This document shows positions 4,819 to 28,797 of a DNA stretch of 64,000 nucleotides, one piece after another. The stretch is taken from contig CBDCSU010000005.1 in NCBI GenBank assembly GCA_965221775.1, positions 256,001-320,000 on the forward strand, read 5' to 3'. A program made the position numbers and the translations under genes. The notes under the pieces are model-generated. The model did no database searches. It was not told the DNA's origin and saw nothing but the letters and a program-made list of their open reading frames with translations. Source of the DNA: Candidatus Latescibacterota bacterium (GTDB lineage: Bacteria; Latescibacterota; UBA2968; UBA8231). The stretch's first letter is position 1; each line of letters opens with the position of its first letter.

Positions 4819-7033
4819 GCGCCGGGCCTGGGGGGCCGTCCAGGGCTTGGCGCAGGCGCGAGGCCAGGTTGGTGTTCCGCCGGGCGGGGCGGTCGTTCTC
4901 GATGGCCCGCCGCAGGGCGCGCTGGCTGCCGATGAGGACGAAGAGCTCCCGGGCCCGGGTGACGGCGGTGTAGAGCAGGTTGCGCTGCAGCATCGGGTAG
5001 TGCTGGGTCGTCAGGGGCAGGACGACGGCCGGGAACTCCGAGCCCTGGGAACGGTGGATGCTGATGGCGTAGGCCATGCTCAGCTGGTCGAGCTCGGCCA
5101 GCTCGTAGCGCTGCACGCCGCCGTCGTCGAAGACGACCTCGGCGAAGGACTCCTCCCCCGTCTCCAGGCGGCCGATGCGCCCCAGGTCGCCGTTGAAGAC
5201 CCCCTTGTCGTAGTTGTTGCGCACCTGCATCACCCGGTCCCCCTCGCGCAGCTCGCGATCGCCGATGGCGTGGGCCTTGCGCCCCGGGTTCAGGCGCTCC
5301 TGGAGCTGGCGGTTGAGCTGCAGGGCGCCGGTCTCGCCGCGGTACATCGGGGTCAGGACCTGGACCTGCCGCATGGGGTCGAGGTCCCGGCCCTGCGGCA
5401 GGCGGCGGGCCACGAGGTCCACGAGGCGCTCGGCGGCGCGGGCGGGGTCGTCCTCCTCGACGAAGTAGAAGCCGGAGTCGGCGCGGTTGTCGATCCGGGG
5501 CCACTGGCCCCCGTTGATGCGGTGGGCGTTGCCGACGATGAGGTTGTCGCCGGCCTGGCGGTAGATGTGGCGCAGGCGCGCCACGGGCACGACGCCGGAG
5601 TCGATGACGTCCCCGAGGAGGTTGCCGGGGCCGACCGAGGGCAGCTGGTCGGCGTCGCCCACCAGGACCAGCCGCGCCGCGTCGGGGACGGCCCGCAGCA
5701 GCGCGTTCATCAGGTTGATGTCGATCATGGAGCTCTCGTCGACGATGACCGCCTCCGCCTCGAGGGGCAGGTTGTCGTCGCGGCGGAAGCCGCCCTCCCG
5801 GGGCGCGAACTCGAGGAGCCGGTGGATGGTGCGGGCCTCGCGGCCGGTGGCCTCGGTGAGGCGCTTGGCGGCCCGCCCCGTGGGCGAGCACAGGGCCACC
5901 CGCAGGCCGGAGGCCTCCAGGCGCCCCACGATCTGGCGGGTGATGGTGGTCTTGCCCGTGCCGGGGCCGCCGGTGACGACCAGGACCTTCCCCGCACCCA
6001 CCTGCTCCAGGGCCCATCGCTGGTCCTCTCCCAGGGACGCTTCCTCCTCGGCATCCGCCTCCCCCGCCTCCTTGGCCAGAGGCGGCCCCGGCGAGGTGAG
6101 AAGCCGCTCCAGGGCCCTGGCCACCCCCCGCTCCGCCCGGTGCAGGCGGCGCGGATAGCAGTCCCGCCCCTCCACGACGACGTCCCCCGATTCCCGGAGG
6201 GCCGCAAGCGCCTCCGGCACGCGCCCGGGGTCCACGCCGAGCAGCTCGGCAGCCGCCGGGGCCAGCTCCTCCTCGGGCAGGAAGAGATGGCCCTCGTCGG
6301 CGGCCTCCTCCAGCAGGTAGCGGAGGCCGGCGCGCACGCGCTCCGGGGCGTCGTGCGCGATGCCGAGATCGCCGGCGATGCGGTCCGCCGTCTGGAAGCC
6401 GATGCCGCGCACGTCGCGCTGCAGCCGGTAGGGATCCTGCCGGACGCTGTGGATCGCCTCCTCGCCGTACTGCTGGTAGATGCGCACCGCGTGCCCCGTG
6501 CCGACGCCGTGGGACTGGAGGAAGACCATGACGTCGCGGATGCGCCGCTGCTCCTTCCAGGCCTCGGCGATGGCCCGCGCCCGCTTGCGCCCCAGGCCCT
6601 CGATCTCCAGCAGCCGCCGCGGCTGGGCGTCGATCACCGTGAGGGAGGAGTCGCCGAAACGGGCGACGATGCGCCCCGCCATGACCGGACCGATCCCCTT
6701 GATCAGCCCTGAGCCGAGGTAGCGCTCGATGCCTTCGGCGGTGGCGGGATACGCGGGGATGCACGACTCCACTTGAAGCTGGCGGCCGAAGCGGGGGTGG
6801 AGGTCCCAGCTCCCCTCCAGCTGCACGCTCTCGCCGGCGGAGACGGCCATGGTGCCGACGACGGTGACCGGCTCCCCCTCGCCTTCCGGTTGCAGCCGGG
6901 CGATGGTGTAGCCGTTCTCCGGGTTCTGGAAGGTGATGTGGTCGATGAGCCCCTTGAGACGCACTCCCGTCCCGGGTGCCGGGTCCTCCCGCGCCGCTCT
7001 CCCGGCGCCCTCGAAGAGATCCCCTTCGCTCAC
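4799..7033 (-). CDS. recD2: ATP-dependent RecD2-family DNA helicase
   Basis: GTG at 7033 (GTGA coupling); ITFQNPENGYTIARL, IKGIGP HhH, GGPGTGKT, PTGRAAKRL, DESSM, AISIHRSQGSEF, RNLLYTAVTRAR. Confidence 0.95.
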   Translation of the reverse strand: MSEGDLFEGAGRAAREDPAPGTGVRLKGLIDHITFQNPENGYTIARLQPEGEGEPVTVVGTMAVSAGESVQLEGSWDLHPRFGRQLQVESCIPAYPATAEGIERYLGSGLIKGIGPVMAGRIVARFGDSSLTVIDAQPRRLLEIEGLGRKRARAIAEAWKEQRRIRDVMVFLQSHGVGTGHAVRIYQQYGEEAIHSVRQDPYRLQRDVRGIGFQTADRIAGDLGIAHDAPERVRAGLRYLLEEAADEGHLFLPEEELAPAAAELLGVDPGRVPEALAALRESGDVVVEGRDCYPRRLHRAERGVARALERLLTSPGPPLAKEAGEADAEEEASLGEDQRWALEQVGAGKVLVVTGGPGTGKTTITRQIVGRLEASGLRVALCSPTGRAAKRLTEATGREARTIHRLLEFAPREGGFRRDDNLPLEAEAVIVDESSMIDINLMNALLRAVPDAARLVLVGDADQLPSVGPGNLLGDVIDSGVVPVARLRHIYRQAGDNLIVGNAHRINGGQWPRIDNRADSGFYFVEEDDPARAAERLVDLVARRLPQGRDLDPMRQVQVLTPMYRGETGALQLNRQLQERLNPGRKAHAIGDRELREGDRVMQVRNNYDKGVFNGDLGRIGRLETGEESFAEVVFDDGGVQRYELAELDQLSMAYAISIHRSQGSEFPAVVLPLTTQHYPMLQRNLLYTAVTRARELFVLIGSQRALRRAIENDRPARRNTNLASRLRQALDGPPGPAPTASAA

Positions 7034-7656
7034 ATCAAGGCAGGTCGCAGCAGCAGGGTGACGGCCGCCCCGAGGGCGGCGCCGGCCACCAGCTGCGCCG
7101 GTGAGTGGGCCTGCCGCCGCCACCGGGCCCACCCCGCCGCCAGGGGCAACAGCGCGCACAGGGGCCACCACGCGGCTTCCACGAGGGTGGCCGCCAGCGC
7201 CGCCCCCCCTCCGGCGCCGGTGGTGTGGATGCTGATCTTCCAGCGGCGGTTCACCAGGCCGACGCCGGCGGCGCCCACGGCGAAGGAGGCCGCCGCCCAG
7301 CGCTGCACCGGCGGCATCTGCAGCCCCTGGAGGAGCGCGAAGCCCACCGCGTAGCAGAGGGTCCCGACGAGCAGGAACCGCCTGCGCAGAGGGCGGGGGG
7401 GATCGTAGATGTCGTCGACTCCCCCGCCCCTGGCCAGCCAGCCGAGGAGGGCCGCGGGGCCGATGGAGAACAGCAGGATGGCCAGGGCCTTGCCCCACGC
7501 CGCCGACAGGGGATCGTCCCCGGCGGGCAGCCACAGGAAGACGATCAGGGCGAGGGCCGGCGGACTGAGGAGATGGGTGATCCAGCGCGCGGCCCCGTCG
7601 GCCCCGGTCTCCCGGCGGGCCGTTCCCGGGCGCGATCGATCGGCCGCGGCTCTCAC
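7030..7656 (-). CDS. PAP2-like integral membrane protein (start uncertain)
   Basis: Several TM helices; WKISIHT and WARWRRQAHSPAQL..G resemble PAP2 C2/C3 motifs. Confidence 0.6.
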   Translation of the reverse strand: MRAAADRSRPGTARRETGADGAARWITHLLSPPALALIVFLWLPAGDDPLSAAWGKALAILLFSIGPAALLGWLARGGGVDDIYDPPRPLRRRFLLVGTLCYAVGFALLQGLQMPPVQRWAAASFAVGAAGVGLVNRRWKISIHTTGAGGGAALAATLVEAAWWPLCALLPLAAGWARWRRQAHSPAQLVAGAALGAAVTLLLRPALM

Positions 7657-7691
7657 ACCTCCGTCCCCGCCGTCACCCCCGGGCCGGGCCC

Positions 7692-8129
7692 TCACCGCTT
7701 CCACTTCTTGCCGCTGGCATCCTTCCCTCTCCTGGCACCCCCGGAACCCGCTTTCCGGGCGCTCTCCACGAGGAAGCCGATGAACCGCTTCTGACCGAGG
7801 GTCTTCAGGTAGGAGAGCAGGGAAACCTCCGCCTCCTTGCGGTCGAGCTTGTAGCGGTCCCGGAGGCCTTCGATCATGTCGGCCACGGAGTTGCGGCCGT
7901 CGCACATCTGCCAGACCTGGGCGCCCACCTCATCGAGGGTGATGGTCCGCTTCTCGGGGATGTAGAAGAGCTTCGACAGGAGTCGGGTCTTCCAGGTCTC
8001 CTGCCGGGTCACCGTGATCCGGACCTCACCCTCCTCGGTCTTCTCCCACGCCAGCAACTCGTTGCGGGCCGGCCGCGACTCCAGCATGGCGTCCCGCGTC
8101 AGCCGCGGCTTCTTCTTCGTGGCAAACAT
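7692..8129 (-). CDS. PqqD-family protein (RiPP recognition element-like)
   Basis: ATG at 8129; ITLDEVGAQVWQMCDGRNSVADMIEGLRDRY...SLLSYLKTLGQKRFI matches the PqqD/RRE pattern. Confidence 0.88.
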   Translation of the reverse strand: MFATKKKPRLTRDAMLESRPARNELLAWEKTEEGEVRITVTRQETWKTRLLSKLFYIPEKRTITLDEVGAQVWQMCDGRNSVADMIEGLRDRYKLDRKEAEVSLLSYLKTLGQKRFIGFLVESARKAGSGGARRGKDASGKKWKR

Positions 8130-9144
8130 ATCCGTCAATGACCTCGTCGAGGGTGTCGCCGCCCTGCTCGCTCTTCTTGAACAGATGCTCGACGATGCAG
8201 ATGCGATTCTGGTCGGGGCAGTGCCACACGGCGCCCCGCAGGTGGCGCCTCGGCCTCGGGTTGACGAAGGGCAGGGGCCGCAGCACCTGGCGCCAGCGGC
8301 TCTGGGGCCGCCCGGTGACACTCAGGCCTTCGTGGCCCCGGAAGTCGGACCGGGCGATCTCGTGGTTCACGTCGCGCAGGTCCTTGCGGAAGAAGGAGGG
8401 GTACCAGTCGGAAAGGTTGGTCCCCTTCAGCAGCATGTGGGCCATGCTCAGCCGGTGCACGCGCAGGACCTGGGCGCCGCCGTCCTTCTCGAAGGTCATC
8501 TTCACGTGGCCCGACTTCAACTCCTTCTCGGTGAGCTCGAAGTCGGCGGGGGCGTGGAAGGTGAGGCCGTACAGGCTCCAGTACTGCAACTTGCCGCGCG
8601 GGTGGTCCTCGAGGGTGGGCAGGACCTCGTTCACCAGGCCGATCGCGCCGACGCCGTCGTCCTTTGCCGCCAGCACCCGCAAAAGCACGATGCGGCCGCA
8701 GTCCGGACAGGCGCGGGCCAGGTTGTAGGCCCGGTAGTCGGCCTCCCAGATGAAGGTCTCGTACTCGCTTCCCTCGAGCCAGCGCTTGTCCTGGAGGAAC
8801 TTGGCGCGCCGCTCGACGCGCAACTCCATGCCCGCCTTGTCGGCCTTCTTCTGCAGCTGGGAGATATAGCGGCTTACGAGATCCTCCACGGGCCGGCGGA
8901 TGCCCCGCTTGGGAGGCGCCCGCCACTCGACCTCGGCCCGCACCATGCGCGTGTCGTCGAGGCGGGCGTAGCCGCTGGCGGCGTCGCCGTCGACCCGGCC
9001 CATCTCCCACTCCTCCGGGACGCGCAGACGGATCCCCTGCCAGCCGAAGTCGTAACGCCGGCCCCCCCCGGCCTGGGATGTCCCCGCAGGCTGCCGGGCC
9101 GGGGCCCCGCCTTCCACGGCCGGCAGTCCGTCGCTCGCGGACAT
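8026..9144 (-). CDS. Hypothetical soluble protein with internal two-fold duplication
   Basis: Protein-like composition; halves start FGWQGIRLRVPEEWEM / WSLYGLTFHAPADFEL and contain ACPDCGRI / HCPDQNRI. Confidence 0.8.
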   Translation of the reverse strand: MSASDGLPAVEGGAPARQPAGTSQAGGGRRYDFGWQGIRLRVPEEWEMGRVDGDAASGYARLDDTRMVRAEVEWRAPPKRGIRRPVEDLVSRYISQLQKKADKAGMELRVERRAKFLQDKRWLEGSEYETFIWEADYRAYNLARACPDCGRIVLLRVLAAKDDGVGAIGLVNEVLPTLEDHPRGKLQYWSLYGLTFHAPADFELTEKELKSGHVKMTFEKDGGAQVLRVHRLSMAHMLLKGTNLSDWYPSFFRKDLRDVNHEIARSDFRGHEGLSVTGRPQSRWRQVLRPLPFVNPRPRRHLRGAVWHCPDQNRICIVEHLFKKSEQGGDTLDEVIDGYVCHEEEAAADAGRHAGVAAGPQRVAGVGEDRGG

Positions 9145-9168
9145 GGACCCTTTCCGACCCGGGCCCGG

Positions 9169-11649
9169 CTAGAAGATGAGGACCGACACCGACTTCTGGA
9201 TCAGGGCGATGGAGATCGACGCCATGCCCATGAGCGCCATGCCGCAGGCGAAGCCGACGGCGAGGACGGGCGCATAGGTGCGCCACTGTTGTCGTCCGTA
9301 GCGGTTCCAGAAGTAGTACCGGGCCAGCATGGCGCCGATGACTTCGGTGATCATCCAGTGGGGGATCGTCGTCAGGGCGCGCACGTAGCCGAAGACGAGG
9401 AGGATGGGCAGCCCGAAGGCCGACAGGAGGATGTAGCTGCCCAGGCCGACGACGGTCCCGGCGACGATGAGGTTCGGCTTGATGGCGCGGAAGAGCCAGG
9501 GCTCGTCGGTGGAGCGCTGGATCCAGGGGCTGGTGAAGTTCGGGTCGGTGTCGACGGCGAAGTAGTACTCCCAGCCGGCGGGCAAGGTCTGGGCGCTGGA
9601 GGCGAGGAGGGCTGGGCGAGGCGTGTCGACGACGCCGATCACCGGTTTCTCGCCCTCGACCAGCTCGGGGATGCGGTCCGGCGTGGCCACGGCGTCGCGG
9701 ATCAGGTCGGCGGCGTGGGGCAGGCCCGCGGCAGCCGGGCCTTCGGCGCGCACCTCGTAGCCTCCGGCCGGCGCCGCCTTCTCCAGGGCGCCGGGAGGCA
9801 GGGTCGGAACGTCTTCGGGCATACCCTCGCCGAAATGGGTGTAGAAGGCGCGCTTCTCGGACCAGGGGCCGGCCTCGCCGAGCTTGCCCTGCGACTCGAT
9901 CCACTTGCTGTCGGCGGCGCGCACGCGCCAGTACCACCACTCCCCCTCCACCAGGTTCGACGGCACCCAGGTGGCGCTGTTGCGCTCCGGCGACTCCTTC
10001 AGCTCGCTCTTCAGGGTGCCGGTGAACCAGATGCAGGTCTGCAGGGCCCGCAGGCGCCACATGACCTGGGCATAGGGGTACGAGGCCGAGGGGATGGGCG
10101 CCAGCTTCCAGATGTAGGAGGAGTAGAGGAATGTGGCGAAGAGGACGATGGGCACCATCACCAACTCGGCCTTGATGATGCTCGTGAACTTGGTGCCCGT
10201 GAGCTCGATCTCGCGGAACTTCTGGGTCTGGGAGCCGTAGTTGCCCAGCGGGAAGGGCATGAACCAGATGTCCACGCCCTGGTACCCGGAGAGGATGATC
10301 GTCGCCTCGCGCACGTAGGGGATCTCGATCGTCTGCCCCACCATGCCCACGAGGCGCGCGTTGACGAAGGACTGGAACGGCGTCAGCACGAACCCGAAGA
10401 ACAGGAAGAACCAGATGAACTGGTGGAAGGCGGGCAGGAAGATCCAGGCGATGACGATGAGGCCGGCGGCGGTCAGCCCGTACAGGGTCAGGGCGATCCA
10501 CATGGGGAAGTCGCCGCGCCCTTCGGGCACCGCCCAGGAACCGCCCCCTCCGCCGGAGGCCCTGGCGGCGGCGGCGTTTCGCAGCCCCTGCACGACCTGC
10601 CAGATGCCGATGAGGGCGATGGCGATGGTCGTGCCGATGCCGAAGCTCATCCAGAAGTCGACGGAGTTGACGAAGAAGGTCTCGATGGCGCCCATGCCGG
10701 GCTGCCAGATCTGCAGGTAGCCGAGGTCGTAGAGGATCGGGTTGGCCACCGAGTGGGCGACGACGCCGAGGAAAGTGCCCATGACCCCCCAGAAAGGCAT
10801 GACGAGGCCGGCGAAGATCGGCCCCAGGTGGGCGGTGAACCCGAGGGGGGTGGCGGGGATGAAGTTGCCCGTGACCTGCGTGAAGTCGACGAAGGGAATG
10901 GGGATCAGCTGGATCGGCTTGGTGAGCAGGGAGCCGGAGATCGCCGGGATCGCCACGTACAAGGTGCCGAAGACGAGGCCGATCATGGCCCCGGCGGAGA
11001 ACGCCCTCCAGCGCCACGACTCCACCCCCTGGGTGGTCTCGGCCAGGGCCGTGGCCCCCTGGGCGGCGACGGGCGCGAAGGGGAAGGGCAGGCGCTCGTA
11101 GTCGGAGTTCAGCCGGAAGAGGGCATAGGCCATGGTGAACCACGAGACCCGCGAGATCACGAACTGCGCCAGCAGCAGCGAGATGGGGATGATCCAGTCG
11201 GTGTGCAGGAAGGTCCGCTGCAGCAGCGCCGGCGACTCCAGGGGCGGCGCCCACCAGTCCGGGATCAGGTTGGCGATGCCGAACTGCTGCGCCGGCGGCG
11301 ACTGGCGCAGGTACTGGTTCCACAGCAGCCCCTCGAAGGCGCCGGTCTCGGCGGCGATCAGTCCCGCCGCCACGTAGTAGAGGACGTACACCTCCTGGCG
11401 CGTCAGGGAGGTGAAGGAGCGCTTGGTGATCTCGGCGAAGAGGATGATCGTCACCCACTCCGCCGCGGCGCCGAGGGAACCGCCCACCATGAGGCTGAGG
11501 TACATGTTCCCCGGGATCATGACGAAGGCGACGAAGAACACGCCGAGGATCGCCTTGCGCGTGAAGCCGTCCTCGAACTCGGTGGGCGTCTCGAGGAGGT
11601 CGCGGTACTCTTCGACTTCCTGGTTGGCGTTGCTCTTGCGTCTCAGCAT
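9169..11649 (-). CDS. OPT/YSL-like oligopeptide transporter with inserted FN3-like soluble domain
   Basis: 826 aa polytopic; GFTRKAILG, MYLSLMVG, LTRQEVYVL resemble the OPT N-terminus; soluble insert with WYWRVRAAD. Confidence 0.8.
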   Translation of the reverse strand: MLRRKSNANQEVEEYRDLLETPTEFEDGFTRKAILGVFFVAFVMIPGNMYLSLMVGGSLGAAAEWVTIILFAEITKRSFTSLTRQEVYVLYYVAAGLIAAETGAFEGLLWNQYLRQSPPAQQFGIANLIPDWWAPPLESPALLQRTFLHTDWIIPISLLLAQFVISRVSWFTMAYALFRLNSDYERLPFPFAPVAAQGATALAETTQGVESWRWRAFSAGAMIGLVFGTLYVAIPAISGSLLTKPIQLIPIPFVDFTQVTGNFIPATPLGFTAHLGPIFAGLVMPFWGVMGTFLGVVAHSVANPILYDLGYLQIWQPGMGAIETFFVNSVDFWMSFGIGTTIAIALIGIWQVVQGLRNAAAARASGGGGGSWAVPEGRGDFPMWIALTLYGLTAAGLIVIAWIFLPAFHQFIWFFLFFGFVLTPFQSFVNARLVGMVGQTIEIPYVREATIILSGYQGVDIWFMPFPLGNYGSQTQKFREIELTGTKFTSIIKAELVMVPIVLFATFLYSSYIWKLAPIPSASYPYAQVMWRLRALQTCIWFTGTLKSELKESPERNSATWVPSNLVEGEWWYWRVRAADSKWIESQGKLGEAGPWSEKRAFYTHFGEGMPEDVPTLPPGALEKAAPAGGYEVRAEGPAAAGLPHAADLIRDAVATPDRIPELVEGEKPVIGVVDTPRPALLASSAQTLPAGWEYYFAVDTDPNFTSPWIQRSTDEPWLFRAIKPNLIVAGTVVGLGSYILLSAFGLPILLVFGYVRALTTIPHWMITEVIGAMLARYYFWNRYGRQQWRTYAPVLAVGFACGMALMGMASISIALIQKSVSVLIF

Positions 11650-11668
11650 GCTCGAGAGGGGGCGCGGT

Positions 11669-14600
11669 TCAGGCGGAGACGGAGCCGGCGGGGGCGCCGG
11701 AGAGCAGTTCCTGTCCCTGGCTCCGGTAGGCCTCCTTGGCCTCGGCGTCGACGGTGCGCCAGATGAGGAACTGCTTGCGGATGACGTTCATGAAACGCTG
11801 GTTGACGCGCCGCCACGAGGCGTCCTCGCCGCTCAGGCGCCGGATGTCGAGCTGGATCTGGTAGATGTTGTGCTCGGACTCGGGCAGGGCGCGGATGACG
11901 ACGTGCTGGCTCACCCCCAGGTCGAAGGGCGCCAGCCAGATGTTCATGTCGATGGTGTAGCCCTCGCCGTACTCGGAGTCGAGGCGGCCCAGCTTGGCGC
12001 CGTCGGTGTAGAAGGTCCCGATCGACTCCTCGGAGTAGGAGTCGAAGTAGCCGATGAGGAAGACCGACAGGCCGAGGACGTCGCGCCCCGCCACGGTGAA
12101 GGGGAACTCGAAGTGCCAGTCGTCCCCTTCGGGCCGCGGCAGCCGCCAGCGGCGGGTCACGTCGGGGACCGCCATCTGCGACGCCCGGCGCGCCGGGTAG
12201 ATGGTGGAGAGCATGACCACCGCCATCACCAGGATGCAGGAGAGCACCGCCGACAGGGACGAGTAGTTGAGGGTGAAGCCGGTGACCACCCCGAGCTGGG
12301 TGAGCAGGGTCGCCGTGATCTGACCGACGAGGTAGCCGGCCACCACCCCGAGGACCGAGTAGACGCAGGACTCGGCCATGAACAGCCAGGCGATGTGCCC
12401 CGGCGCCAGGCCCACGGAGGAGTAGATGCCGATCTCGCGGAAGCGCTCGTAGACGCTGCCCATCATCGTGTTGAGGACGATGAGGGCGGCGATGAGGATC
12501 GGCACGAAGAGGTTGGCCACCCCCGACAGCGAGGTCATGCCCAGGGAGCTGTAGATCGACACCTTGATGTAGTCGTCGCCCGGCTCCTGGATGCCGGCGA
12601 AGAGGGTCACCGCCAGGCGCGACAGGAACTGCTCGATCTCGGCGCGCTCGTCGACGCCCTCGTCGAAACGGATCGCCACCGACTGCAGGGGATTGCCGCT
12701 GCCCACGTTGCGCAGCGTGTGGTACGGCAGGATCAGGGTGTTGGCCGGCTCCAGGTGGACGAAGGGCTTGATCACCACCTGCGCGTCCTCGAGGCCCTGC
12801 TTCTCCCGCTGCTCCTCCTCGGCGATCTCCTGCACCGCCTGGCCGCCGGTGACGGCGAAGTCGGCGGGCGTCATCGTCTCGTCGTCGAGATCCTTCAGCT
12901 CCTTCATGCGCGTGGAGTTGATGATGCCGATGACGGTGAACCGCTCGCCGAAGACGCGCACCGTGACGCCGCCGGCGTCGACCTCGCCCATGTCGATGCC
13001 GAGCTTGTCGGCCCCGAGCATGTCGTTCGGCAGGATGCAGACCCTCTCTTCGCCCTCCCGGAACCAGCGCCCCGCCAGCAGGGCCTGGTCGAGGCCGGTC
13101 ACATCGGTCTCGGACGGGGTCAGGCCGAGGACGCCGAGGGCGTTATGGGCATCCTCGCCGTACTTGATCTTGATGTGGGCCTTCTTCTGGTTGTCGTACC
13201 AGCTCCGCGGCGCGATGGCGGCCCGGCCGCCGAAGTTGCTGTGGGCGTACTCGAGGACCGACTCCTCCAGCGGCGTCCACGCCTTGCTGCGGATCAGCAG
13301 GCCCTCGTAGAGCCCCTCGTTGTCGCGCTCGATCTGGTTGTAGCGCAGCGCCGTCTGGATGGACGTGAAGGACAGGACCGTGAAGGTGAGCAGCAGCAGG
13401 GTGACGAAGGTCAGCGCCGTGCGCAGCTTGCGGCGCTTCATGTTGGAGATGCCCAGGAGGAAGGCGGTGAGGGAGGCGCTGGAGCGGCTCACGTCGGTGT
13501 CGTGAATGACCGCCACCTCGGTGCGCAGCTTCTTCATCTGCTCGTTGAAGCGGCCGGAGATGATCCACATGACGAGGGCCGCGAGGACGAGGATGACGAA
13601 GGCCAGGAGAATGACGAAGGGGTTGGACAGCTCGAAGGCCGGGTGGACGAAGGAGAGGACGATCCAGATGACGAGGAAGATGCCGGCGAAGCCCATGATC
13701 TGGCGCTGGATCGTGGCGGCGGTGATCAGCAGGCGCTCGGCGAAGTAGGCGCAGGGCAGGACCAGGGCCATGAAGAAGATGATGCCCTGGATCACGTCGT
13801 TCTGGGTCGACTTGACGTCGGGATAGGCCCGCGACTCCAGGCCGATGGCGGAGCGCGTGTGGCGCACGAACTCGCTCCACTCCTTGCGCTCCAGGGCCGC
13901 CGCCGCCCGTTCCAGCTCCCCCCGGGCGCGTTCGTGCAGGTCGTTCAGACGCTGGTTCTCGATGGCGAAACTCCGCAGCTCGCGCATGCGGGCCTCGTCG
14001 AGGGTCCACATGTCACGGGCCGACTGGTAGGAGGTTCGCGCGAAGGAGGACCCCGGCTCCATGGCGAAACCCGCCCCCAGGGCCTCCTCCTTGTCGTCCG
14101 GGTTCTCGGAGTTCAGCAGCAGGGAGCGGAAGCCGAGAATGCCGGCGCCGAAGCCCATTTTCACCAGGGCCCCCGGACGGGCGAAGAGCACGCCCACCGG
14201 CTCGTCCTTGGCCGAGGGGCCCTCCCCGATGGTGTATCCGTACTCCACGGGGGAGGCGTTGGTCTCGTCGAAGACGGTGACCTCGGAGAGCTTGGTGAGG
14301 TAGCGGGGGTCGACGATGTCGAAGAAGTTGAAGGCGTGACACGGGAAGAGGACGACCATCCACTCCTTGTCGCGCCAGTCCATCTTGATCAGCATCGGGT
14401 AGGCCTGGTCGCCCTGGATGCCGCGGTCGGGCGCGTAGCTGACCCGTCCGGTGGCCGGGTCCATGCGGTAGCCCTCCACCTGGACCTGCTCGACGCGGAT
14501 GCGGTTGACGAAAAAGGCGCCGTCGCCGTCGACGACCTCGAAGTACTCGCCGCGCACGCCCTTGTAGGACTTCTTCTTGCCGTTGCGCACGACGCCGACG

Positions 14601-16480
14601 GCGCCGGTGCGCGGCAGGTCCGGCACGATGCTGCGCCTCGGGAAGACCATGGTCCGGGCCTTCAGGGAGCGCATCGTGTCCTTGAGGCGCATCTTGAAGT
14701 CGGGGAACAGCTCCGGGTCCTCGAAGGCCATGTGGAACATCCCCGCCAGGGCCCGGATCTGCCGCGAGAGGTTGTCGTAGCGGATGTGGTGCGCGCGGTC
14801 GAGAGGGGTGTCGACGAGGAACCGGGCGTCGTTCACGGTGACGAAGGCCAGGGCCGGTGTCCCCGTGGTCAGCACCAGCTCGCTGTTCACGGAGATCTCG
14901 CCGGGGACGAAGGTCTCCCAGCTCTTGCCCCCCTCGGGGCTGATGCCGTTCACCAGGACGTCGCGGAAGCTGTAACCGAGCTCGCGGCTCACCTTTCGCG
15001 AGTAGCCCATGAAGTTCTTGCCGAAGGGCGCGAAGTAGCGCTTGTAGTAGAAGCTCGAGTTGCTGTTCCAGATGCCGAGCTCGTCGGTCTGCGTCGACAG
15101 GTCGAGGCTGATGAACAGGTTCACGTCGAGGGAATCGACCTTCGGATCGACCCACTCGCGGTAGAAGCCCAGGCGCAGGTCCTCGTCGTCGCCGAGCTTC
15201 CTAAGCAACTCGTCGGAGGAGTCGAAGGAAGCCTGGCGGAGCTCGGACCCCTTCCTGTACCGGAGCCGCCAGTCGTCGCCGTCGCGGATGATCAGGTCTT
15301 CGCCGTCCGCCATGGAGGCCCTGGCCACGGCGCGCACGAGAAGGGTGTCGGTCTCGGCCACGGAGCGAACCAGCGCTTCCTTGCCGCTGAAGGTCTCCTC
15401 GCCGAGAAGGTAGGTGACCCCGTCCTCTCCCTCGCCGATCAGCCCGCGGGCCAGGGACGCTTCGATGACTCGGCGCAGGACCATGCGGTCGATGAAGGGG
15501 TTCTCGTCGCGCAGGTAGCGCTGGATGAAGTCGTCGATGCCGCGCAGGGCGAGGTGGTGGGCGGAGGTGGCGAGGAACAGGACCGAGCGCGCCGGGGGAT
15601 GCTCGCGGAAGTACCGGGCCAGCTCGAGCAGGGCCGTGATCCCCGCCGCCTGCTCGGCGCCGGGCGCGAGGGAGGGCACCACCGACATGGCGTCGTAGTA
15701 CGACTCCAGGACGATCACATCGTCCTGGAGCAGGGGGTCGTAACCGGGGATGAAGCCCATGACGTTCCAGGCCGGGCGCCGCTCCCAGTCCATGCGGTAC
15801 TCGAGGTGGGCCGAGGGCGGCCCGCCCGCGCCCTCGATCGCCTCCCGCAACAGTCCGCCATCCGGGCCGCTCACCCAGAACCGGGGCAGGTCGAGGGGCA
15901 TGGTGAGGAACTTCTTCTCGCCCTCCAGGTAGACGGTCGAGTCGGGCTCGATGAAGACGACGGCGGCGGCGCCCAGATAGGCGCCGTTGAGCCAGTTGTC
16001 GCCGGAGTTGAAGTCGAGGACGACGACGGCCCCCTCCACGTCCTGGCCGTCGAACTCCACGAACTCCCCCCGTCCGCCGTAGATCAGGGGCCCGTGGATG
16101 CCGCCGTCGGGCAGGGTCGAGGTGCGCACCAGGTTGGGCCACAGTCCGTGGAGCTCCACGGAGGGCCCTCCCGCGATCCTGAGACGTCCTCCCTGGTCGA
16201 CGGGCACGGAGACGTCGTACTTGTGGAAGGTGATGTCGTGCAGGCCGATCTGCCGGAACTGGCGGTGCACGTGCAGGGCCGCCTCCTCGGCTCCGGGATA
16301 GCCGGCCACGCGCGAACCGAGGCCCGAGAAGAACCCCACGGTCCGGCGCAGACGGTCCTCCGGCGCCAGCTGGCGGAGGGCCTCGAAGTCGACTTCGGCC
16401 GCCGCCGGCGCCGCCGCGAGGACGGCGAGCAGGCCGAGGGACCCCGCGCGCAGACGGAGAAACGGGCGCATATCGGTCAT
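11669..16480 (-). CDS. Large PA/M28-peptidase-like + FtsX/MacB-type permease fusion
   Basis: Signal peptide ending AAAPAAA; RVAGYPG, NVMGFIPG, VIVLESYYD, APGAEQAAG (M28-like); NMKRRKLRTALT, NTMMGSVYERFREIGIYSSVG, YPARRAS (FtsX/MacB). Start 16471-16507 uncertain; ORF-track extension to 17203 overlaps other genes. Confidence 0.88.
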   Translation of the reverse strand: MTDMRPFLRLRAGSLGLLAVLAAAPAAAEVDFEALRQLAPEDRLRRTVGFFSGLGSRVAGYPGAEEAALHVHRQFRQIGLHDITFHKYDVSVPVDQGGRLRIAGGPSVELHGLWPNLVRTSTLPDGGIHGPLIYGGRGEFVEFDGQDVEGAVVVLDFNSGDNWLNGAYLGAAAVVFIEPDSTVYLEGEKKFLTMPLDLPRFWVSGPDGGLLREAIEGAGGPPSAHLEYRMDWERRPAWNVMGFIPGYDPLLQDDVIVLESYYDAMSVVPSLAPGAEQAAGITALLELARYFREHPPARSVLFLATSAHHLALRGIDDFIQRYLRDENPFIDRMVLRRVIEASLARGLIGEGEDGVTYLLGEETFSGKEALVRSVAETDTLLVRAVARASMADGEDLIIRDGDDWRLRYRKGSELRQASFDSSDELLRKLGDDEDLRLGFYREWVDPKVDSLDVNLFISLDLSTQTDELGIWNSNSSFYYKRYFAPFGKNFMGYSRKVSRELGYSFRDVLVNGISPEGGKSWETFVPGEISVNSELVLTTGTPALAFVTVNDARFLVDTPLDRAHHIRYDNLSRQIRALAGMFHMAFEDPELFPDFKMRLKDTMRSLKARTMVFPRRSIVPDLPRTGAVGVVRNGKKKSYKGVRGEYFEVVDGDGAFFVNRIRVEQVQVEGYRMDPATGRVSYAPDRGIQGDQAYPMLIKMDWRDKEWMVVLFPCHAFNFFDIVDPRYLTKLSEVTVFDETNASPVEYGYTIGEGPSAKDEPVGVLFARPGALVKMGFGAGILGFRSLLLNSENPDDKEEALGAGFAMEPGSSFARTSYQSARDMWTLDEARMRELRSFAIENQRLNDLHERARGELERAAAALERKEWSEFVRHTRSAIGLESRAYPDVKSTQNDVIQGIIFFMALVLPCAYFAERLLITAATIQRQIMGFAGIFLVIWIVLSFVHPAFELSNPFVILLAFVILVLAALVMWIISGRFNEQMKKLRTEVAVIHDTDVSRSSASLTAFLLGISNMKRRKLRTALTFVTLLLLTFTVLSFTSIQTALRYNQIERDNEGLYEGLLIRSKAWTPLEESVLEYAHSNFGGRAAIAPRSWYDNQKKAHIKIKYGEDAHNALGVLGLTPSETDVTGLDQALLAGRWFREGEERVCILPNDMLGADKLGIDMGEVDAGGVTVRVFGERFTVIGIINSTRMKELKDLDDETMTPADFAVTGGQAVQEIAEEEQREKQGLEDAQVVIKPFVHLEPANTLILPYHTLRNVGSGNPLQSVAIRFDEGVDERAEIEQFLSRLAVTLFAGIQEPGDDYIKVSIYSSLGMTSLSGVANLFVPILIAALIVLNTMMGSVYERFREIGIYSSVGLAPGHIAWLFMAESCVYSVLGVVAGYLVGQITATLLTQLGVVTGFTLNYSSLSAVLSCILVMAVVMLSTIYPARRASQMAVPDVTRRWRLPRPEGDDWHFEFPFTVAGRDVLGLSVFLIGYFDSYSEESIGTFYTDGAKLGRLDSEYGEGYTIDMNIWLAPFDLGVSQHVVIRALPESEHNIYQIQLDIRRLSGEDASWRRVNQRFMNVIRKQFLIWRTVDAEAKEAYRSQGQELLSGAPAGSVSA

Positions 16481-16518
16481 GACCGGGTAATGATCGGCAA
16501 ACGGCATGGGCCCCGCAA

Positions 16519-17049
16519 TCACCGACCGGGGGCGGGGCCTCCCCCGTAGCCCGCCCTGGCCAGGGCCCGCACCGCGTAGTAGGTGATCAGCCCCGTCATC
16601 GCCCCGGAGAGGACGCCGCCCACCAGGAAGAGGGGCAGCAGCCGCAACAGACCCGCCTGGGCGAGATAGACCTCGGCCACCAGGAGCTGCGTCACCTGGT
16701 GGACGACGGCCCCCGCGACGCTCAGCCCCACGGGGCTCAACAGGCCGGGCAGGTATCGCCGCAGTCCGATCATCGCGGCCAGGCTCGTGAGGGCGGCGCT
16801 GCCCCCGATGACCGACGCCGGGCCGGCCAGACCGCCGCTCAACAGACCGCCGACGACGACCTTCACGGCGCTCACCGCCGCCCCCGGGCCGCCGCCGAAG
16901 AGGAGCAGCGTCGACAGGACGGCGGCGTTTCCGAGTCCGAGCTTCATCCACGGCAGGGGGCGCGGCACGACCGTCTCGAAGACGAAGAGGATCAGGGCGG
17001 CGGCGGACATCAGCCCCAGGAAGGCGACGCGCTTTGCGGGCGAGAGCAT
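16519..17049 (-). CDS. Gx transporter family (heptaprenyl diphosphate synthase component I-like) membrane protein
   Basis: FVFETVVPRPLPWMKLGLGN, SPVGLSVAGAVVHQVTQL. Confidence 0.9.
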   Translation of the reverse strand: MLSPAKRVAFLGLMSAAALILFVFETVVPRPLPWMKLGLGNAAVLSTLLLFGGGPGAAVSAVKVVVGGLLSGGLAGPASVIGGSAALTSLAAMIGLRRYLPGLLSPVGLSVAGAVVHQVTQLLVAEVYLAQAGLLRLLPLFLVGGVLSGAMTGLITYYAVRALARAGYGGGPAPGR

Positions 17050-17414
17050 CAGCGGCTGACCCCGTCGAAGGAGGGACCGCCCTCCCCTTCGACCCGGACC
17101 ACCAGATGGTTGGGGACACAGACCGCCACGTCGCCCACCGCCCGCAGCCAGCCGCGGCGGACGCAGATCCGCCGGGCGCAGGGAGAGTCCACAACGCGGG
17201 CACGGCCGCCGTCGACCTCCACCGCGCTCACCCCGGCGGGGCCGGGCACCTCGATCCGCGCCGCCTCGTGCAGCGGCAGGAGACGCACGACCTCGCCTCC
17301 CACCTGCACGCTCGCCGCCCGGGGGGTCCCACCGCCGGGCCTCGCCACGAGCAGGGCCGCCGCCGACAGCAGCACCACCGCCGCGAGAACGATGTCGCCC
17401 GGGCTGGGAGGCAG
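17049..17414 (-). CDS. NusG domain II-containing membrane-anchored protein (start uncertain: CTG 17414 or GTG 17543)
   Basis: GD + TM anchor; VVDSPCARRICVRRGW...AVCVPNHLVVRV. Confidence 0.85.
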   Translation of the reverse strand: MPPSPGDIVLAAVVLLSAAALLVARPGGGTPRAASVQVGGEVVRLLPLHEAARIEVPGPAGVSAVEVDGGRARVVDSPCARRICVRRGWLRAVGDVAVCVPNHLVVRVEGEGGPSFDGVSR

Positions 17415-17427
17415 GGGCCGGTACGGC

Positions 17428-17456
17428 TTGACACTCCCCCTGGGGCTGATTACACT
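17428..17456 (+). promoter_or_regulatory. Sigma70-type promoter upstream of rel
   Basis: TTGACA(17428-17433)-N17-TACACT(17451-17456). Confidence 0.75.
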
Positions 17457-17592
17457 GGCGAGAGCGCCGCGCAATGACGTATCTCGTTGTCGGCTATGGA
17501 GTAACCGCCGTTTCGCCGGGCCTGTTTCGAGGCCTCCGGACACCCCGTGCCCGTCGAGCCCGCACCGGCTTCACCGGGCTTGTGAGCCCCTC

Positions 17593-19869
17593 TTGACGAC
17601 CTCCCGGACCGCCGTCGAAGAAGCGCCCCCCCGCGACGGGGAAGACCTGCCGGAGCGCCCGGGCCCCACCAATCTCGAGGCGCTGCTCGAGGACTCGCGG
17701 GACCACCTGCAGCTGCAAATGCTGCTCATCGAGGTCGCCTCGTGCAACGAGTCCGCCGACTTCGACCTGGTGGCCCGCGCCTACCACTTCGCCCACGAGG
17801 CCCACGCCGGGCAGATCCGCAAGTCGGGGGAACCCTACCTCCAGCACATCGTCGAGGTGGCCCGGATCCTCGCCCAGCTGCGCCTCGACACGACCACCGT
17901 CGCCGCCGGCCTGCTCCACGACGTGGTGGAGGACACGGCGGTCACGCAGGACCAGATCGAGTCCCGGTTCGGGTCCAAGATCTCGGCCCTCATCGACGGG
18001 GTCACCAAGATCGAGCGCTTCCAGCTCGAGAGCCGCGAGGCCCGCCAGGCCGAGACCTTCCGCAAGATGCTGCTGTCCATGGTCGAGGACATCCGGGTCA
18101 TCCTGGTCAAGTTCGCCGACCGGCTGCACAACATGCGCACCCTGGACGCCCTCGACGACGACCAGCGCCAGCGCATCTCCCACGAGACCCTCGAGGTCTA
18201 TGCGCCCCTGGCCCACCGGCTGGGCCTGGCCCGGATCCGCTGGGAGCTGGAGGACCGCAGCCTCAAGCATCTCGAGCCCGCCTTCTACCGCGAAATCCGC
18301 GAGAAGGTGGCCATGCGGCGCGAGGAGCGGGAGCGCCTGATCGACGGCTTCAAGACGCCCCTGGCCGAGGAGCTGGCTCGCAGCGGCATCGAGGCCGAGA
18401 TCACCGGGCGTCCGAAGAACTTCTACAGCATCTACAACAAGATGCGCAGCCGGGTGAAGCCCTTCGAGGAGATCTACGACCTCACGGCGGTGCGCATCAT
18501 CGTCGGCACCGCGCGCGAGTGCTACCACACCCTCGGCCTGGTGCACACCCTCTACCGCCCGATCCCGGACCGCTTCAAGGACTACATCGCCACGCCCAAG
18601 ACCAACATGTACCAGTCGCTGCACACCACGGTCATCGGCCCTCAGGGCATGCCGGTGGAGGTGCAGATCCGCACCTGGGAGATGCACCACACGGCGGAGA
18701 TCGGCATCGCCGCCCACTGGCGCTACAAGGGGGGGGGAGCCGGGGAGAGCAGCGACCTCGACCAGCAGATGAACTGGCTGCGCCAGGTCCTCGACTGGCA
18801 GCGGGACTCCACCGACCCGGCGGAGTTCATGGAAAACCTGAAGATCGAGCTCTTCCAGGACGAGATCTTCGTCTTCACCCCCAAGGGCGACCTCCACCAG
18901 CTGCCGAAGGAGGCGACCCCCATCGACTTCGCCTTCGCCATCCACACCGACATCGGCCTCCACTGCCTGACCGCCAAGGTGGACGGCCAGATCGTTCCCC
19001 TGAGCACGCCCCTGACGAGCGGCGCCACCGTGCAGATCATCACCTCGCCCCACCAGAAGCCGAATCCGTCCTGGCTCGAGATGGTCAAGACCGCCAAGGC
19101 CCGCCAGGCGATCCGCCGATGGGTGAAGGAGGAGCGATTCTCCCAGAGCGTGCGCCTCGGCCAGGAGATCCTCGAGCACGAGCTGAAGCGCTACCGCCAC
19201 CGCGCCGGCAGCGAGGCCCTCGAGGAGCTGGCGGCGGAGATGAAGCTCGCCGACACCGAGCACCTCTACGCGGCCATCGGCGCCGGCGACCTGTCGGTGA
19301 GCCGCGCCGTCAACCGCCTCGTGCCGAATCCGCCGAAGCGTCGGGTGCGGCCGCTGATCCGCGACCGGCGGGGCATCCGCATCCAGGGCATGAACGACAT
19401 GATGATCCACTTCGGGAAGTGCTGCACGCCGATTCCCGGAGACCCGATCATCGGCCTCATCACCCGGGGCCGGGGGCTGTCGGTGCATCGCACGGACTGT
19501 CCCAACTTCGCCGACCTGGCCGAGGATCCGGAGCGCCTCACGCCGGTGGCCTGGGACCTCGAGGAGGAGCAGGCCTTCACGGTGCAGCTCCTCGTGTGCG
19601 GGCATGACCGCAGGTACTTCCTCTCCGACGTGACCCGCATCATCTCCGACACGGGTGCCAACATCGTCAGCTGCGAGACCCGGACCCTGGCCCACGTCGT
19701 GGAGGAGACGTTCCGGATCGACGTCCACGATTCCCGGCAATTGCAGAAGATGGTGAAGAAGCTGCGCGGCGTGGAAGGCGTCACCGAGGTGCAGCGCGTC
19801 GACGAAGTGGCCGTGGAGGGACCGGACCTCCGCGGCGAGGAGGGACGGGGGTCCGCCGAGCCCCGGTGA
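17593..19869 (+). CDS. rel: Bifunctional (p)ppGpp synthetase/hydrolase (long RSH, Rel/SpoT)
   Basis: RKSGEPY, HDVVED hydrolase motif, RFKDYIATPKTNMYQSLHT, EVQIRT, TGS and ACT domains. Start TTG 17593 (alternative ATG 17719). Confidence 0.95.
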   Translation: MTTSRTAVEEAPPRDGEDLPERPGPTNLEALLEDSRDHLQLQMLLIEVASCNESADFDLVARAYHFAHEAHAGQIRKSGEPYLQHIVEVARILAQLRLDTTTVAAGLLHDVVEDTAVTQDQIESRFGSKISALIDGVTKIERFQLESREARQAETFRKMLLSMVEDIRVILVKFADRLHNMRTLDALDDDQRQRISHETLEVYAPLAHRLGLARIRWELEDRSLKHLEPAFYREIREKVAMRREERERLIDGFKTPLAEELARSGIEAEITGRPKNFYSIYNKMRSRVKPFEEIYDLTAVRIIVGTARECYHTLGLVHTLYRPIPDRFKDYIATPKTNMYQSLHTTVIGPQGMPVEVQIRTWEMHHTAEIGIAAHWRYKGGGAGESSDLDQQMNWLRQVLDWQRDSTDPAEFMENLKIELFQDEIFVFTPKGDLHQLPKEATPIDFAFAIHTDIGLHCLTAKVDGQIVPLSTPLTSGATVQIITSPHQKPNPSWLEMVKTAKARQAIRRWVKEERFSQSVRLGQEILEHELKRYRHRAGSEALEELAAEMKLADTEHLYAAIGAGDLSVSRAVNRLVPNPPKRRVRPLIRDRRGIRIQGMNDMMIHFGKCCTPIPGDPIIGLITRGRGLSVHRTDCPNFADLAEDPERLTPVAWDLEEEQAFTVQLLVCGHDRRYFLSDVTRIISDTGANIVSCETRTLAHVVEETFRIDVHDSRQLQKMVKKLRGVEGVTEVQRVDEVAVEGPDLRGEEGRGSAEPR

Positions 19870-24337: not shown

Positions 24338-24353
24338 CGGCACGGGAGTTGCA
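24338..24353 (+). promoter_or_regulatory. Sigma54 (-24/-12) promoter-like site
   Basis: CGGCAC-GGGAG-TTGCA matches TGGCAC-N5-TTGCW spacing, upstream of ATG 24418. Confidence 0.6.
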
Positions 24354-24417
24354 CCGAGGCGGGCCCGGCAGGCGGAAGACTTCGCCCGCCCCCCCACCCT
24401 ATCCCGGGAGGCATCCC

Positions 24418-25089
24418 ATGCTGACTCGAGTGTTGCGCAAATCCCCCTGGCTGGCCGGCTGGCTCTTCCTCACAGGCGCCGGCTCCGCTGCCGGCGAGCC
24501 GGGGCCCGTCGTCGTGAGCGAGCTGATGTGGGCCGGAAGCTCCGCTTCCAGCTCCGATGAGTGGATCGAGCTCTACAACCGTGGTTCCGACACCGTGGAC
24601 CTCACCGGCTGGACGATCACCCGGGGCGAGGGCGAGGACGAGAGCGTGATGGTCCTCATCGAGTCCGGCCAGCTGCGGCCGGGCGAGGTCTATCTGATCT
24701 CCAATTACGGCCACGAAGACGAACGATCCCGCCTTGCGGCGGAGCCCTCCCTCGTGGACCCGCAGGTCTCCCTGCCCAACAGCAAGCTCCGTCTCCGCCT
24801 CTACGACGGGGACCCCGAGTCAGGATCCGTCATCGACCTGGTCGATGATGGCAAAGGTGCGCCCTTCGGGGGCCTGAGCGGCGATACGAAGGCGGCCATG
24901 GTGCGGACCGACCTCGAGGCTCCGGGGGACGAGAAGAGTTCGTGGACCACCGCCACGGCGGCCAGCGGATGGGACCCGGGGGCCACCGAGCTCGGCACTC
25001 CCGGTACCATGCCCGGCGAGCAGTCCTCGACGGAGATGCCCACCCACGTATGGGCTGTCGCCTGGGGGACGATCAAGCACGGGCTCTGA
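24418..25089 (+). CDS. Secreted lamin-tail-domain protein with C-terminal WGTIK motif
   Basis: GGGAGG RBS; signal peptide; VVVSELMWAG, DEWIELYN, VDLTGWTI, GTPG; tail PTHVWAVAWGTIKHGL. Confidence 0.85.
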   Translation: MLTRVLRKSPWLAGWLFLTGAGSAAGEPGPVVVSELMWAGSSASSSDEWIELYNRGSDTVDLTGWTITRGEGEDESVMVLIESGQLRPGEVYLISNYGHEDERSRLAAEPSLVDPQVSLPNSKLRLRLYDGDPESGSVIDLVDDGKGAPFGGLSGDTKAAMVRTDLEAPGDEKSSWTTATAASGWDPGATELGTPGTMPGEQSSTEMPTHVWAVAWGTIKHGL

Positions 25090-25191
25090 GCGCCGCGTTG
25101 GTCCACAGGTTCGTATCTTCTGGTCGGCATCCGCCCCGCCGCCGCAACCCAGACGGCGGCGGGGCCAGCACGACCTATCCGGACCATCTCT

Positions 25192-28776: not shown

Positions 28777-28797
28777 TTCGGCCTCCGAGCCCCCCGG

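Follow-up and report, generated by a model that had tools for sequence, protein, structure and literature searches.

The 64,000-nt window analysed here, positions 256001-320000 of contig C5 in the genome of a Candidatus Latescibacterota bacterium, carries a compact cluster of minus-strand genes, four of which probably belong to a six-gene ATP-binding cassette (ABC) envelope system of type VII (the MacB/FtsX type) that is split in this genome. The four encode a giant M28-like/MacB_PCD/FtsX envelope protein of 1612 amino acids (aa), recognized by its Pfam domains and hydropathy (11669..16507; hereafter the giant), an 826-aa OPT-like polytopic permease without a Pfam match of its own (9169..11649), a 372-aa protein belonging to no family (h372; 8026..9144) and a 145-aa PqqD-like protein (7692..8129) of the type known from RiPP recognition elements (RREs), RiPPs being ribosomally synthesized and post-translationally modified peptides. 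Positions without a prefix are in window numbering and the features they mark lie on the minus strand; the prefixes C and L denote contigs of this genome and loci of other genomes, respectively. From these parts we infer that the system would perform the ATP-driven handling of a periplasmic ligand, coupled to the OPT-fold permease.

Gene order and distribution of the system

The evidence for a six-gene system comes chiefly from gene order in other genomes. Five loci were fetched from the deep-branching families f8, f11 and f12 of the same phylum, in small genomes where h372 and an ABC ATPase lie 1.3-1.5 kb apart. In all five, a single contiguous and co-oriented operon encodes the giant, the OPT-like protein, h372, the PqqD-like protein, a minimal FtsX (~230 aa, PF02687) and the ATPase (PF00005), with identities to the proteins of the window and its genome of 44, 42, 29, 53, 58 and 75%, in that order. 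The last two genes are also present side by side in the genome of the window at C6:2503857-2505318, on another contig (found by tblastn, and both confirmed by Pfam), where the ATPase orthologue occupies C6:2504548-2505345. This ATPase is 68% identical to its Desulfobacterales counterpart, compared with 44% for the next-best paralogue in the same genome, and the minimal FtsX is 42.5% identical to the Desulfobacterales one; RmlD-like and GT2 genes precede the pair. It is from the five contiguous operons, and from the presence of these orthologues on a second contig, that the window cluster is read as what was probably a six-gene operon whose last two genes moved to another locus.

The same partners recur beyond the phylum. 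The recurrent order in Desulfobacterota runs minimal FtsX, ABC ATPase, giant, DUF6785 plus DUF6784, OPT-like protein, c14 (a periplasmic 205-aa protein), h372-like protein and PqqD-like protein, and is found in the cultured Desulfacinum hydrothermale, Desulfogranum marinum, Desulfovibrio sp. DV and Solidesulfovibrio aerotolerans, among others. The minimal FtsX and ATPase also stand directly before the giant in Armatimonadia. Across 93 loci whose genes were clustered, an ATPase orthologue adjoins the module in 26, with the minimal FtsX beside it in 21 (Desulfobacterota, Armatimonadia). Such a composition, two different FtsX subunits served by one type of ATPase, is that of LolC, LolE and LolD. 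Within the phylum, an orthologue-level ATPase (best E <=1e-105) is present in 144 of the 154 genomes that hold the OPT-like protein, whereas all 13 genomes of family f10, from which that protein is absent, are without such an ATPase. A first-pass annotation, made from the letters of the window alone, had proposed a system free of any ATPase. The observation behind this proposal stands, as none of the 73 ABC_tran matches of the genome falls in C5:256001-320000, but the proposal itself gives way to the cognate ATPase that is linked elsewhere (the five operons, the 26 loci and the orthologue on C6), which is the very finding the annotation had named as speaking against it.

The four core genes themselves are seldom parted. 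All 18 close loci found by way of the OPT-like protein, in metagenome-assembled genomes labelled Latescibacterota or Gemmatimonadota, contain the four genes in the same order and on the same strand, far beyond chance expectation, and the giant (73-99% identity) and the OPT-like protein (71-98%) are more conserved than the nearby RelA (40-95%) and RecD2 (56-95%). A profile scan using one genome per species confirmed at least 555 OPT-like stretches, and relatives of the protein occur in more than 500 species genomes of Latescibacterota, Desulfobacterota, Armatimonadota, Planctomycetota and others. The giant lies beside the OPT-like gene in 76 of the 93 loci, the other 17 consisting of eight that are cut by contig ends and nine stand-alone OPT-like paralogues.

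Co-occurrence extends to the soluble partners. Profile searches of 168 genomes of the phylum found the OPT-like protein in 154 and h372 in 149, the latter always in single copy: 148 genomes hold both, six the OPT-like protein only, one (57% complete) h372 only, and 13 neither, all of these in family f10. In an even sample of 101 Desulfobacterota genomes, drawn from the class of one Desulfobacterales genome, 28 hold both an h372-like and an OPT-like protein, one the OPT-like protein only, none h372 only, and 72 neither. When 20 Desulfobacterota loci were anchored on h372, a PqqD-like gene adjoined it in 19, c14 in 17 and the OPT-like gene in 13; the c14/h372/PqqD trio stands apart in five of these loci, and the OPT-like gene is found elsewhere in all five genomes. 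Among four cultured holders, three likewise carry h372 at another place in the genome. A reading of h372 and the PqqD-like protein as optional additions was rejected, as genome-wide profiles show their near-constant presence with the OPT-like protein. The view taken in the first-pass annotation of the four core genes as a conserved, co-occurring and apparently uncharacterized envelope module spread over several phyla is thus borne out by the close loci and by these counts. The neighbourhood comparison it had suggested upheld the synteny and brought out the minimal FtsX and the ATPase as recurring extra partners.

A FastTree phylogeny of 95 OPT-like proteins, which gives local support values only and came with long-branch warnings, groups the window protein in a 31-row clade, in which 30 rows have h372 and PqqD adjacent. 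In the sister clades, made up of paralogues P3-P5 from the same genome and a Latescibacterota group with a 58-59% identical ATPase paralogue, neither gene is nearby. The genome of the window itself contains five giant/OPT-like pairs, together with a single h372, a single PqqD-like gene, and one minimal FtsX and one ATPase of orthologue level. The four further pairs lie at C5:836607-844976, C4:758263-766767, C4:349830-361309 and C6:229458-250136, and none of them has an h372, PqqD-like gene or ATPase of its own. Their neighbours differ from one pair to the next and include FG-GAP/UnbV_ASPIC, PPIase, CARDB/Dockerin surface protein, M20 peptidase and LPG_synthase_TM genes.

Architecture of the encoded proteins

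In the giant, a signal peptide and a periplasmic stretch of ~860 aa, in which a degenerate M28-like domain lies, precede three transmembrane (TM) helices; these are followed by an FtsX module with a putative periplasmic core of the MacB type, and by a cytoplasmic tail of ~165 aa. Hydropathy places its TM helices at aa 905-972 (three), 1032-1050 and 1327-1436. The M28-like segment (aa 248-329; 15521..15766) matches PF04389 with 28.8 bits against a cut-off of 21.3, although over model positions 1-78 of 193 only. Compared with sequences of the PDB, the head matches YwaD (E 2e-5) and, weakly, Nicalin (E 0.015), itself a non-catalytic M28-like protein. The residues of the M28 site were read from an alignment to YwaD and the Vibrio aminopeptidase and counted in 75 members of the giant family. 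The position of the first His ligand is occupied by Tyr in 50 and Phe in 17, and by His in only two; that of the catalytic Glu holds His in 66; the second Glu position is variable; and the bridging Asp position holds Glu in 52 and Asp in 23. D272 is kept in all 75, and no alignment was possible for the two C-terminal ligands. The canonical M28 site, with its two-zinc ligand set and catalytic Glu, is therefore not kept in the family. Because of this loss, and in view also of the weak match to the non-catalytic Nicalin, the head is most likely a binding or regulatory pseudo-peptidase. Thus, the domain calls of the first-pass annotation (an M28-like/FtsX fusion, an OPT-like protein and a PqqD domain) hold, but a working M28 peptidase finds no backing in metal and catalytic residues that are not conserved.

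The MacB_PCD region (aa 1041-1218), a putative periplasmic core between TM1 and TM2, and the four-TM FtsX module (aa 1334-1445) together span 12173..13387, and the latter matches PF02687 with 57.2 bits (cut-off 25.5). In the loop that follows TM2 of this module, residues E1354, R1355, E1358 and I1359 are invariant in all 75 giants, and we take this loop to be the coupling helix that contacts the ATPase. The C-terminal cytoplasmic domain (aa 1446-1612; 11672..12172) has no match in Pfam or NCBIfam and belongs to no known family. Many of its residues are invariant, including W1454, P1469, F1470, W1524, D1529, W1565 and W1583, each in 75 of 75 giants. A weak NCBIfam match to the ADOP family was also obtained, and a search of the ESM Atlas with aa 340-900 returned nothing usable.

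The OPT-like protein has at least 10 hydrophobic segments by hydropathy. It matches no Pfam family, and scores only 17.4 bits against TIGR00728, for which the cut-off is 128. Its relatives number 962 representatives at E <=0.001, and two of the ten that were scanned match PF03169, one of them (P0336) over its full length with 55.1 bits; the relatives that match are of 28-46% identity. An alignment of 29 family members (A2) contains three with OPT matches, four with Reg_prop, one with WD40 and one with FGE-sulfatase. The protein is accordingly best described as a predicted remote member of the OPT superfamily, its homology being transitive through these relatives only. It shares with the OPT family (TC 2.A.67; PF03169) the character of a large polytopic membrane protein, but fails the OPT models of both Pfam and NCBIfam, and carries a variable, non-membrane insert at about aa 545-715 (9505..10017). 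This insert is absent from shorter relatives of 650-700 aa, whose tblastn alignments jump aa 550-710, and other relatives carry PDZ, Reg_prop, WD40 or FGE-sulfatase domains in its place. A further difference is the genetic tie of the gene to an ABC engine, which to our knowledge is found with no characterized OPT protein.

Profiles of the OPT-like and DUF6785 families align with a probability of 63% (hhalign; E 6.9e-5, 449 columns), and the two are remote relatives. DUF6785 and DUF6784 are Pfam families of unknown function. In Desulfobacterota they separate the giant from the OPT-like gene, and some relatives have them ahead of the giant, but neither is present in the window cluster. Elsewhere in this 5.4-Mb genome, 21 DUF6785 genes are scattered (for example at C4:161093-168391, C5:1448049-1451476 and C6:943323-964447), compared with none in 14 control genomes. 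Neighbours of the stand-alone copies include SBP_bac_1, an enolase-type enzyme, a xylose-isomerase-like TIM barrel, SDR, a PALP enzyme, DUF4838 and CarboxypepD_reg, and many of the genes adjoin sugar or organic-acid catabolic and solute-binding genes. DUF6785 looks like a large, unstudied transporter family that has expanded in a sponge-associated lineage.

No match to h372 was found in Pfam, NCBIfam or the PDB (its profile against PDB sequences gave a best E of 0.16), and the ESM Atlas returned unnamed clusters only. All 95 of its relatives are unnamed or called 'hypothetical'. It has no TM segment by hydropathy and is predicted to be soluble. The first-pass annotation had read it as duplicated; its N- and C-terminal halves align over 37 columns with a probability of 37% (hhalign; E 3.6e-4), which lends an internal duplication weak support.

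The PqqD-like protein contains a clear PF05402 domain (49.6 bits, cut-off 23.4), and yet it falls below the cut-off of every curated PqqD subfamily, among them the PQQ, lasso, GeoRSP and SCM types (PQQ_PqqD 31.6/46; lasso_PqqD_Bac 29.2/80; geo_PqqD_fam 29.2/100). It also differs from known members in a basic N-terminal extension, which is conserved from Latescibacterota to Desulfobacterota, and in its partners, h372 and the ABC engine. PqqD/RRE domains bind precursor peptides. Here, the operon and the nine flanking genes checked contain neither a RiPP maturase nor a precursor peptide, and radical-SAM, YcaO, pqq and other RiPP-enzyme families are absent from those flanking genes; the first-pass annotation had likewise seen no such enzyme or precursor in the cluster.

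The genes for h372 and the PqqD-like protein overlap by 104 nt (8026..8129), or the last ~30 or so codons of h372, and they overlap in all 18 close loci, over 60-104 nt. The overlap is unusually long for coupled genes. Pairwise differences among 26 sequences number 1633, 1882 and 4530 at codon positions 1, 2 and 3 of the PqqD frame, and the position of the h372 stop varies among the same sequences. Because differences pile up at its third position, and because the ends of the h372 frame vary, the PqqD frame is the one under selection, with the h372 tail as its by-product. A programmed frameshift fusing the two proteins was considered and rejected on the same grounds, the third-position bias being confined to the PqqD frame, and in the absence of any fused proteins; that no longer fused form of the PqqD-like protein was found is in itself weak evidence. 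A complex prediction that paired h372 (aa 28-345) and the PqqD-like protein reached 0.07, where the mark was 0.32, and weighs neither way.

Proposed mechanism and competing explanations

If the six proteins act together, two copies of the ATPase would attach to the minimal FtsX paired with the FtsX module of the giant. ATP binding and hydrolysis would then move the periplasmic core of the giant and its 860-aa M28/PA-like head, by mechanotransmission as in MacB. The head would bind a periplasmic ligand rather than cleave it, and pass it to, or receive it from, the OPT-fold permease, which would provide the path across the inner membrane. This division of labour fits MacB-type proteins, in which ATP moves periplasmic domains and no substrate is transported across the inner membrane (PMC8277102). 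On the cytoplasmic face, h372 and the PqqD-like protein would be single-copy partners of the ABC engine, and would probably hold on to a peptide-like stretch, belonging either to the cargo or to a partner. A single engine may serve all five giant/OPT cassettes, and so may h372 and the PqqD-like protein, since they are single-copy like the engine. A peptide cargo, also proposed in the first-pass annotation, is suggested by analogy from the PqqD and OPT folds only.

Type VII ABC systems such as MacB, LolCDE and FtsEX have roles in efflux, lipoprotein release and cell-wall control, respectively. The system described here resembles MacAB-TolC and LolCDE in the four-TM FtsX fold, a putative periplasmic core between TM1 and TM2, a separate ATPase of the MacB/LolD kind and a conserved loop after TM2. 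It differs from them in that one FtsX partner is minimal and without a periplasmic domain, and in that the giant has, in addition, a head of 860 aa, three further TM helices and a cytoplasmic tail of 165 aa. Further differences are that no membrane-fusion protein or TolC was seen, that an OPT-fold permease is always alongside and h372 and the PqqD-like protein usually so, and that the ATPase genes are unlinked in this genome.

As for direction, the import of a peptide-like or glycopeptide-like nutrient is favoured, if tentatively. The lean rests on the known OPT proteins being importers, on the multiplication of giant/OPT pairs (five) and DUF6785 genes (21), and on catabolic neighbours. In the sister clade, for example, DHDPS-family, PhyH dioxygenase, zinc-ADH and DAP-epimerase-family genes come after the module (L026:14242-19410; also L027, L033, L029, L035-L038), a possible catabolic route for the cargo. 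A more elaborate form of this proposal, which we regard as doubtful, is a modular envelope machine in which one single-copy engine (minimal FtsX, ATPase, h372 and PqqD-like protein) drives interchangeable giant-plus-OPT cassettes that import such nutrients. If true, it would constitute a new mode of transport, with a TonB-like shared energizer in sponge symbionts and several other phyla.

Several observations weigh against an ABC-driven importer of this kind. The match of the giant to PF12704, at 26.5 bits, lies just below the cut-off of 27. Orthologue-level ATPase is missing from 10 of the 154 genomes with the OPT-like protein, most of which are 60-89% complete, but one of which (G132) is 95% complete; the contrast in ATPase content across the phylum rests on one lineage, f10, and so amounts to approximately one independent event; and the ATPase beside the sister-clade module (L026, L027, L033) is a 58-59% identical paralogue rather than the orthologue. 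The four other giant/OPT loci of the genome share no neighbour theme. In Desulfobacterota, the module is single-copy in five of five genomes, and adjoins STAS, RsbW-like, cNMP-binding and glycosyltransferase genes, not catabolic ones. Finally, we know of no described type VII ABC system that acts as an importer.

Export of a cytoplasmic RiPP-like peptide or glycoconjugate would invert this order of events: the PqqD-like protein and h372 would hold the cargo, the OPT-like protein (with DUF6785 where present) would take it across the membrane, and the giant would trim, present or expel it in the fashion of MacB. The binding of precursor peptides by PqqD/RRE domains suits such a route, as does a radical-SAM/SPASM gene (L066:469-1365) directly upstream of the minimal FtsX in a Desulfatibacillum-labelled locus with h372 and PqqD, although radical SAM occurs at only one of ten upstream neighbours scanned and is the sole RiPP-like enzyme seen near the system. 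Glycosyltransferases recur near the minimal FtsX and ATPase, with a GT28_C-type gene (c31) upstream in the Desulfobacterota loci L057, L060, L061, L081 and L085 and downstream of PqqD in L089, in addition to the GT2 gene of the genome itself, and a PorV-like or Omp85-like outer-membrane gene lies near some loci. MacB-type pumps clear their substrates from the periplasm (PMC8277102). Against export, the 11-41 nt gaps of the window operon leave no room for a precursor gene, none of its nine flanking genes encodes a RiPP enzyme, a conserved membrane-fusion or TolC-type partner was not seen, and the OPT proteins known are importers. Export is accordingly judged unlikely.

Less likely again is an envelope regulator resembling FtsEX, which works through EnvC, a degenerate LytM protein. 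By this analogy, the catalytically dead head of an ATP-driven giant would activate a partner hydrolase or envelope protein, or put it in position, and the OPT-like protein would recycle the fragments released. The two systems are alike in combining an FtsX-type engine with a metallopeptidase-fold domain that is without canonical catalytic residues, and both the degeneracy of the M28 site across the giant family and the conservation of the FtsX module and its loop motif are in keeping with a regulator, as are the PPIase, surface-protein, M20 peptidase and LPG_synthase_TM genes near paralogous loci. However, EnvC is a LytM/M23 protein in its own right, whereas the present system has its degenerate domain, of the M28-like type, within the FtsX protein; the 93 loci show no conserved amidase or other hydrolase as a partner, nor is there a link to cell-division genes; the distribution in Desulfobacterota is patchy (29 of 101 genomes); and five giants and 21 DUF6785 genes fit substrate diversification better than a housekeeping regulator. 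Least probable of all, and by a long way hard to credit, is the complex without an ABC engine put forward in the first-pass annotation, whose cooperating partners would be an M28-like receptor in the periplasm, an OPT carrier driven by protons and an RRE in the cytoplasm. The 64-kb window does lack an ATPase gene, orphan FtsX permeases are known as a class, and there is the weak match to the ADOP family. This explanation is nevertheless already contradicted by synteny, as the ATPase and minimal FtsX share the operon in all five deep-branching loci and the ATPase is adjacent in 26 of 93, and is opposed too by the retention of the 68% identical ATPase orthologue in the genome and by the invariant FtsX loop motif of the 75 giants.

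The ABC-driven system favoured here places a type VII engine in genetic lock with an OPT-fold permease, a protein without a family and an RRE-type domain. If these parts work together, they would show the coupling of ATP-driven periplasmic work to a secondary-transporter fold, give RRE domains a role outside RiPP synthesis, and explain a gene family multiplied in a sponge-associated lineage (five giants and 21 DUF6785 genes). The system is testable because cultured holders exist (Solidesulfovibrio, Desulfogranum, Desulfacinum).

Neighbouring genes, literature and transcripts

Two further genes precede the giant on the same strand. The first encodes a NusG_II-domain protein (17049..17543; 164 aa; PF07009, 79.5 bits) with an N-terminal TM anchor, whose true start may be later, near 17414, and the second a Gx transporter/Hpre_diP_synt_I membrane protein (16519..17049; 176 aa; PF07456, 103.6 bits). 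The ORF listing, start mapping, Pfam and NCBIfam agree on six co-oriented minus-strand genes in the window, and third-position GC indicates minus-strand coding from ~7100 to 17500 in this DNA of ~70% G+C. From NusG_II onward, the genes are separated by a 1-nt overlap and by gaps of 11, 19 and 24 nt, followed by the 104-nt overlap described above, so that the tight co-oriented arrangement noted in the first-pass annotation is confirmed. Its placing of NusG_II and Gx at the head of the system is not. Both were detected in 15 of the 18 close loci, but Gx is beside the giant in none of 52 other loci (L026-L027, L029-L030, L032-L039, L042-L072, L074-L093), and loci of other phyla, like the deep-branching operons, contain neither of the two. 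They are neighbours in the family-level lineage of the window only, and not part of the conserved system.

On the other side, a PAP2-like membrane protein (7030..7650; PF01569, 22.2 bits against a cut-off of 27.2) is encoded 41 nt past the PqqD-like gene. A match to it is found downstream in 15 of the 18 close loci, often 1.5-2 kb away, and it is best regarded as a downstream neighbour in the window lineage. RecD2 lies downstream of the cluster, and RelA/SpoT and an aminotransferase are divergent upstream. A search of Rfam across 6500-18500 gave merely a chance sR30 match (E 0.09), and a scan for promoters and terminators gave nothing informative above a shuffled background.

Full-text searches, with most subscription journals outside their scope, found no publication on DUF6785 or DUF6784 and none combining FtsX, M28 and PqqD. 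The literature retrieved for the OPT family with FtsX and M28, and for PqqD with MacB and FtsX-like proteins, was unrelated work only, and nothing useful was found on NusG domain II with the Gx transporter. Database names of OPT-like and h372 relatives were all 'hypothetical protein' among those seen. The six-gene set is thus conserved and, apparently, undescribed in the literature searched, although subscription journals could hold a description.

Metagenomes of sponges and of marine samples contain near-identical DNA. Of 30 bins across positions 7000-18000, 24, 23, 30 and 24 are covered by contigs from four RNA libraries belonging to three studies; the gaps in cover in three of the four say nothing about expression. 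These contigs bridge the giant/OPT-like, OPT-like/h372 and h372/PqqD junctions. Carry-over of DNA is possible, bridging does not prove a single transcript, and expression of the cluster is no more than hinted at. In the contigs of libraries X15 and X16, one base is missing at position 9148, within the noncoding 24-nt gap between the OPT-like and h372 genes, a strain variation or assembly difference.

Some minor observations concern genes further away. In Desulfobacterales, STAS, RsbW-like HATPase_c_2, cNMP-binding and fused ABC exporter genes come after the system on the opposite strand at L089:15509-19505, with the same families also in L058, L066, L080, L081, L087 and L090; the set may be a partner-switching regulatory one. 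Within the window, a Lamin-tail-domain protein and an FG-GAP/UnbV_ASPIC protein are encoded at 24349-26901, and the same FG-GAP/ASPIC family adjoins a paralogous giant/OPT locus (C6:234343-242655). Lastly, two small minus-strand genes at 28369-29448, judged by eye, resemble a pair of the ExbD/ExbB (TolR/TolQ) type, and are followed by a gene for a 1097-aa protein.

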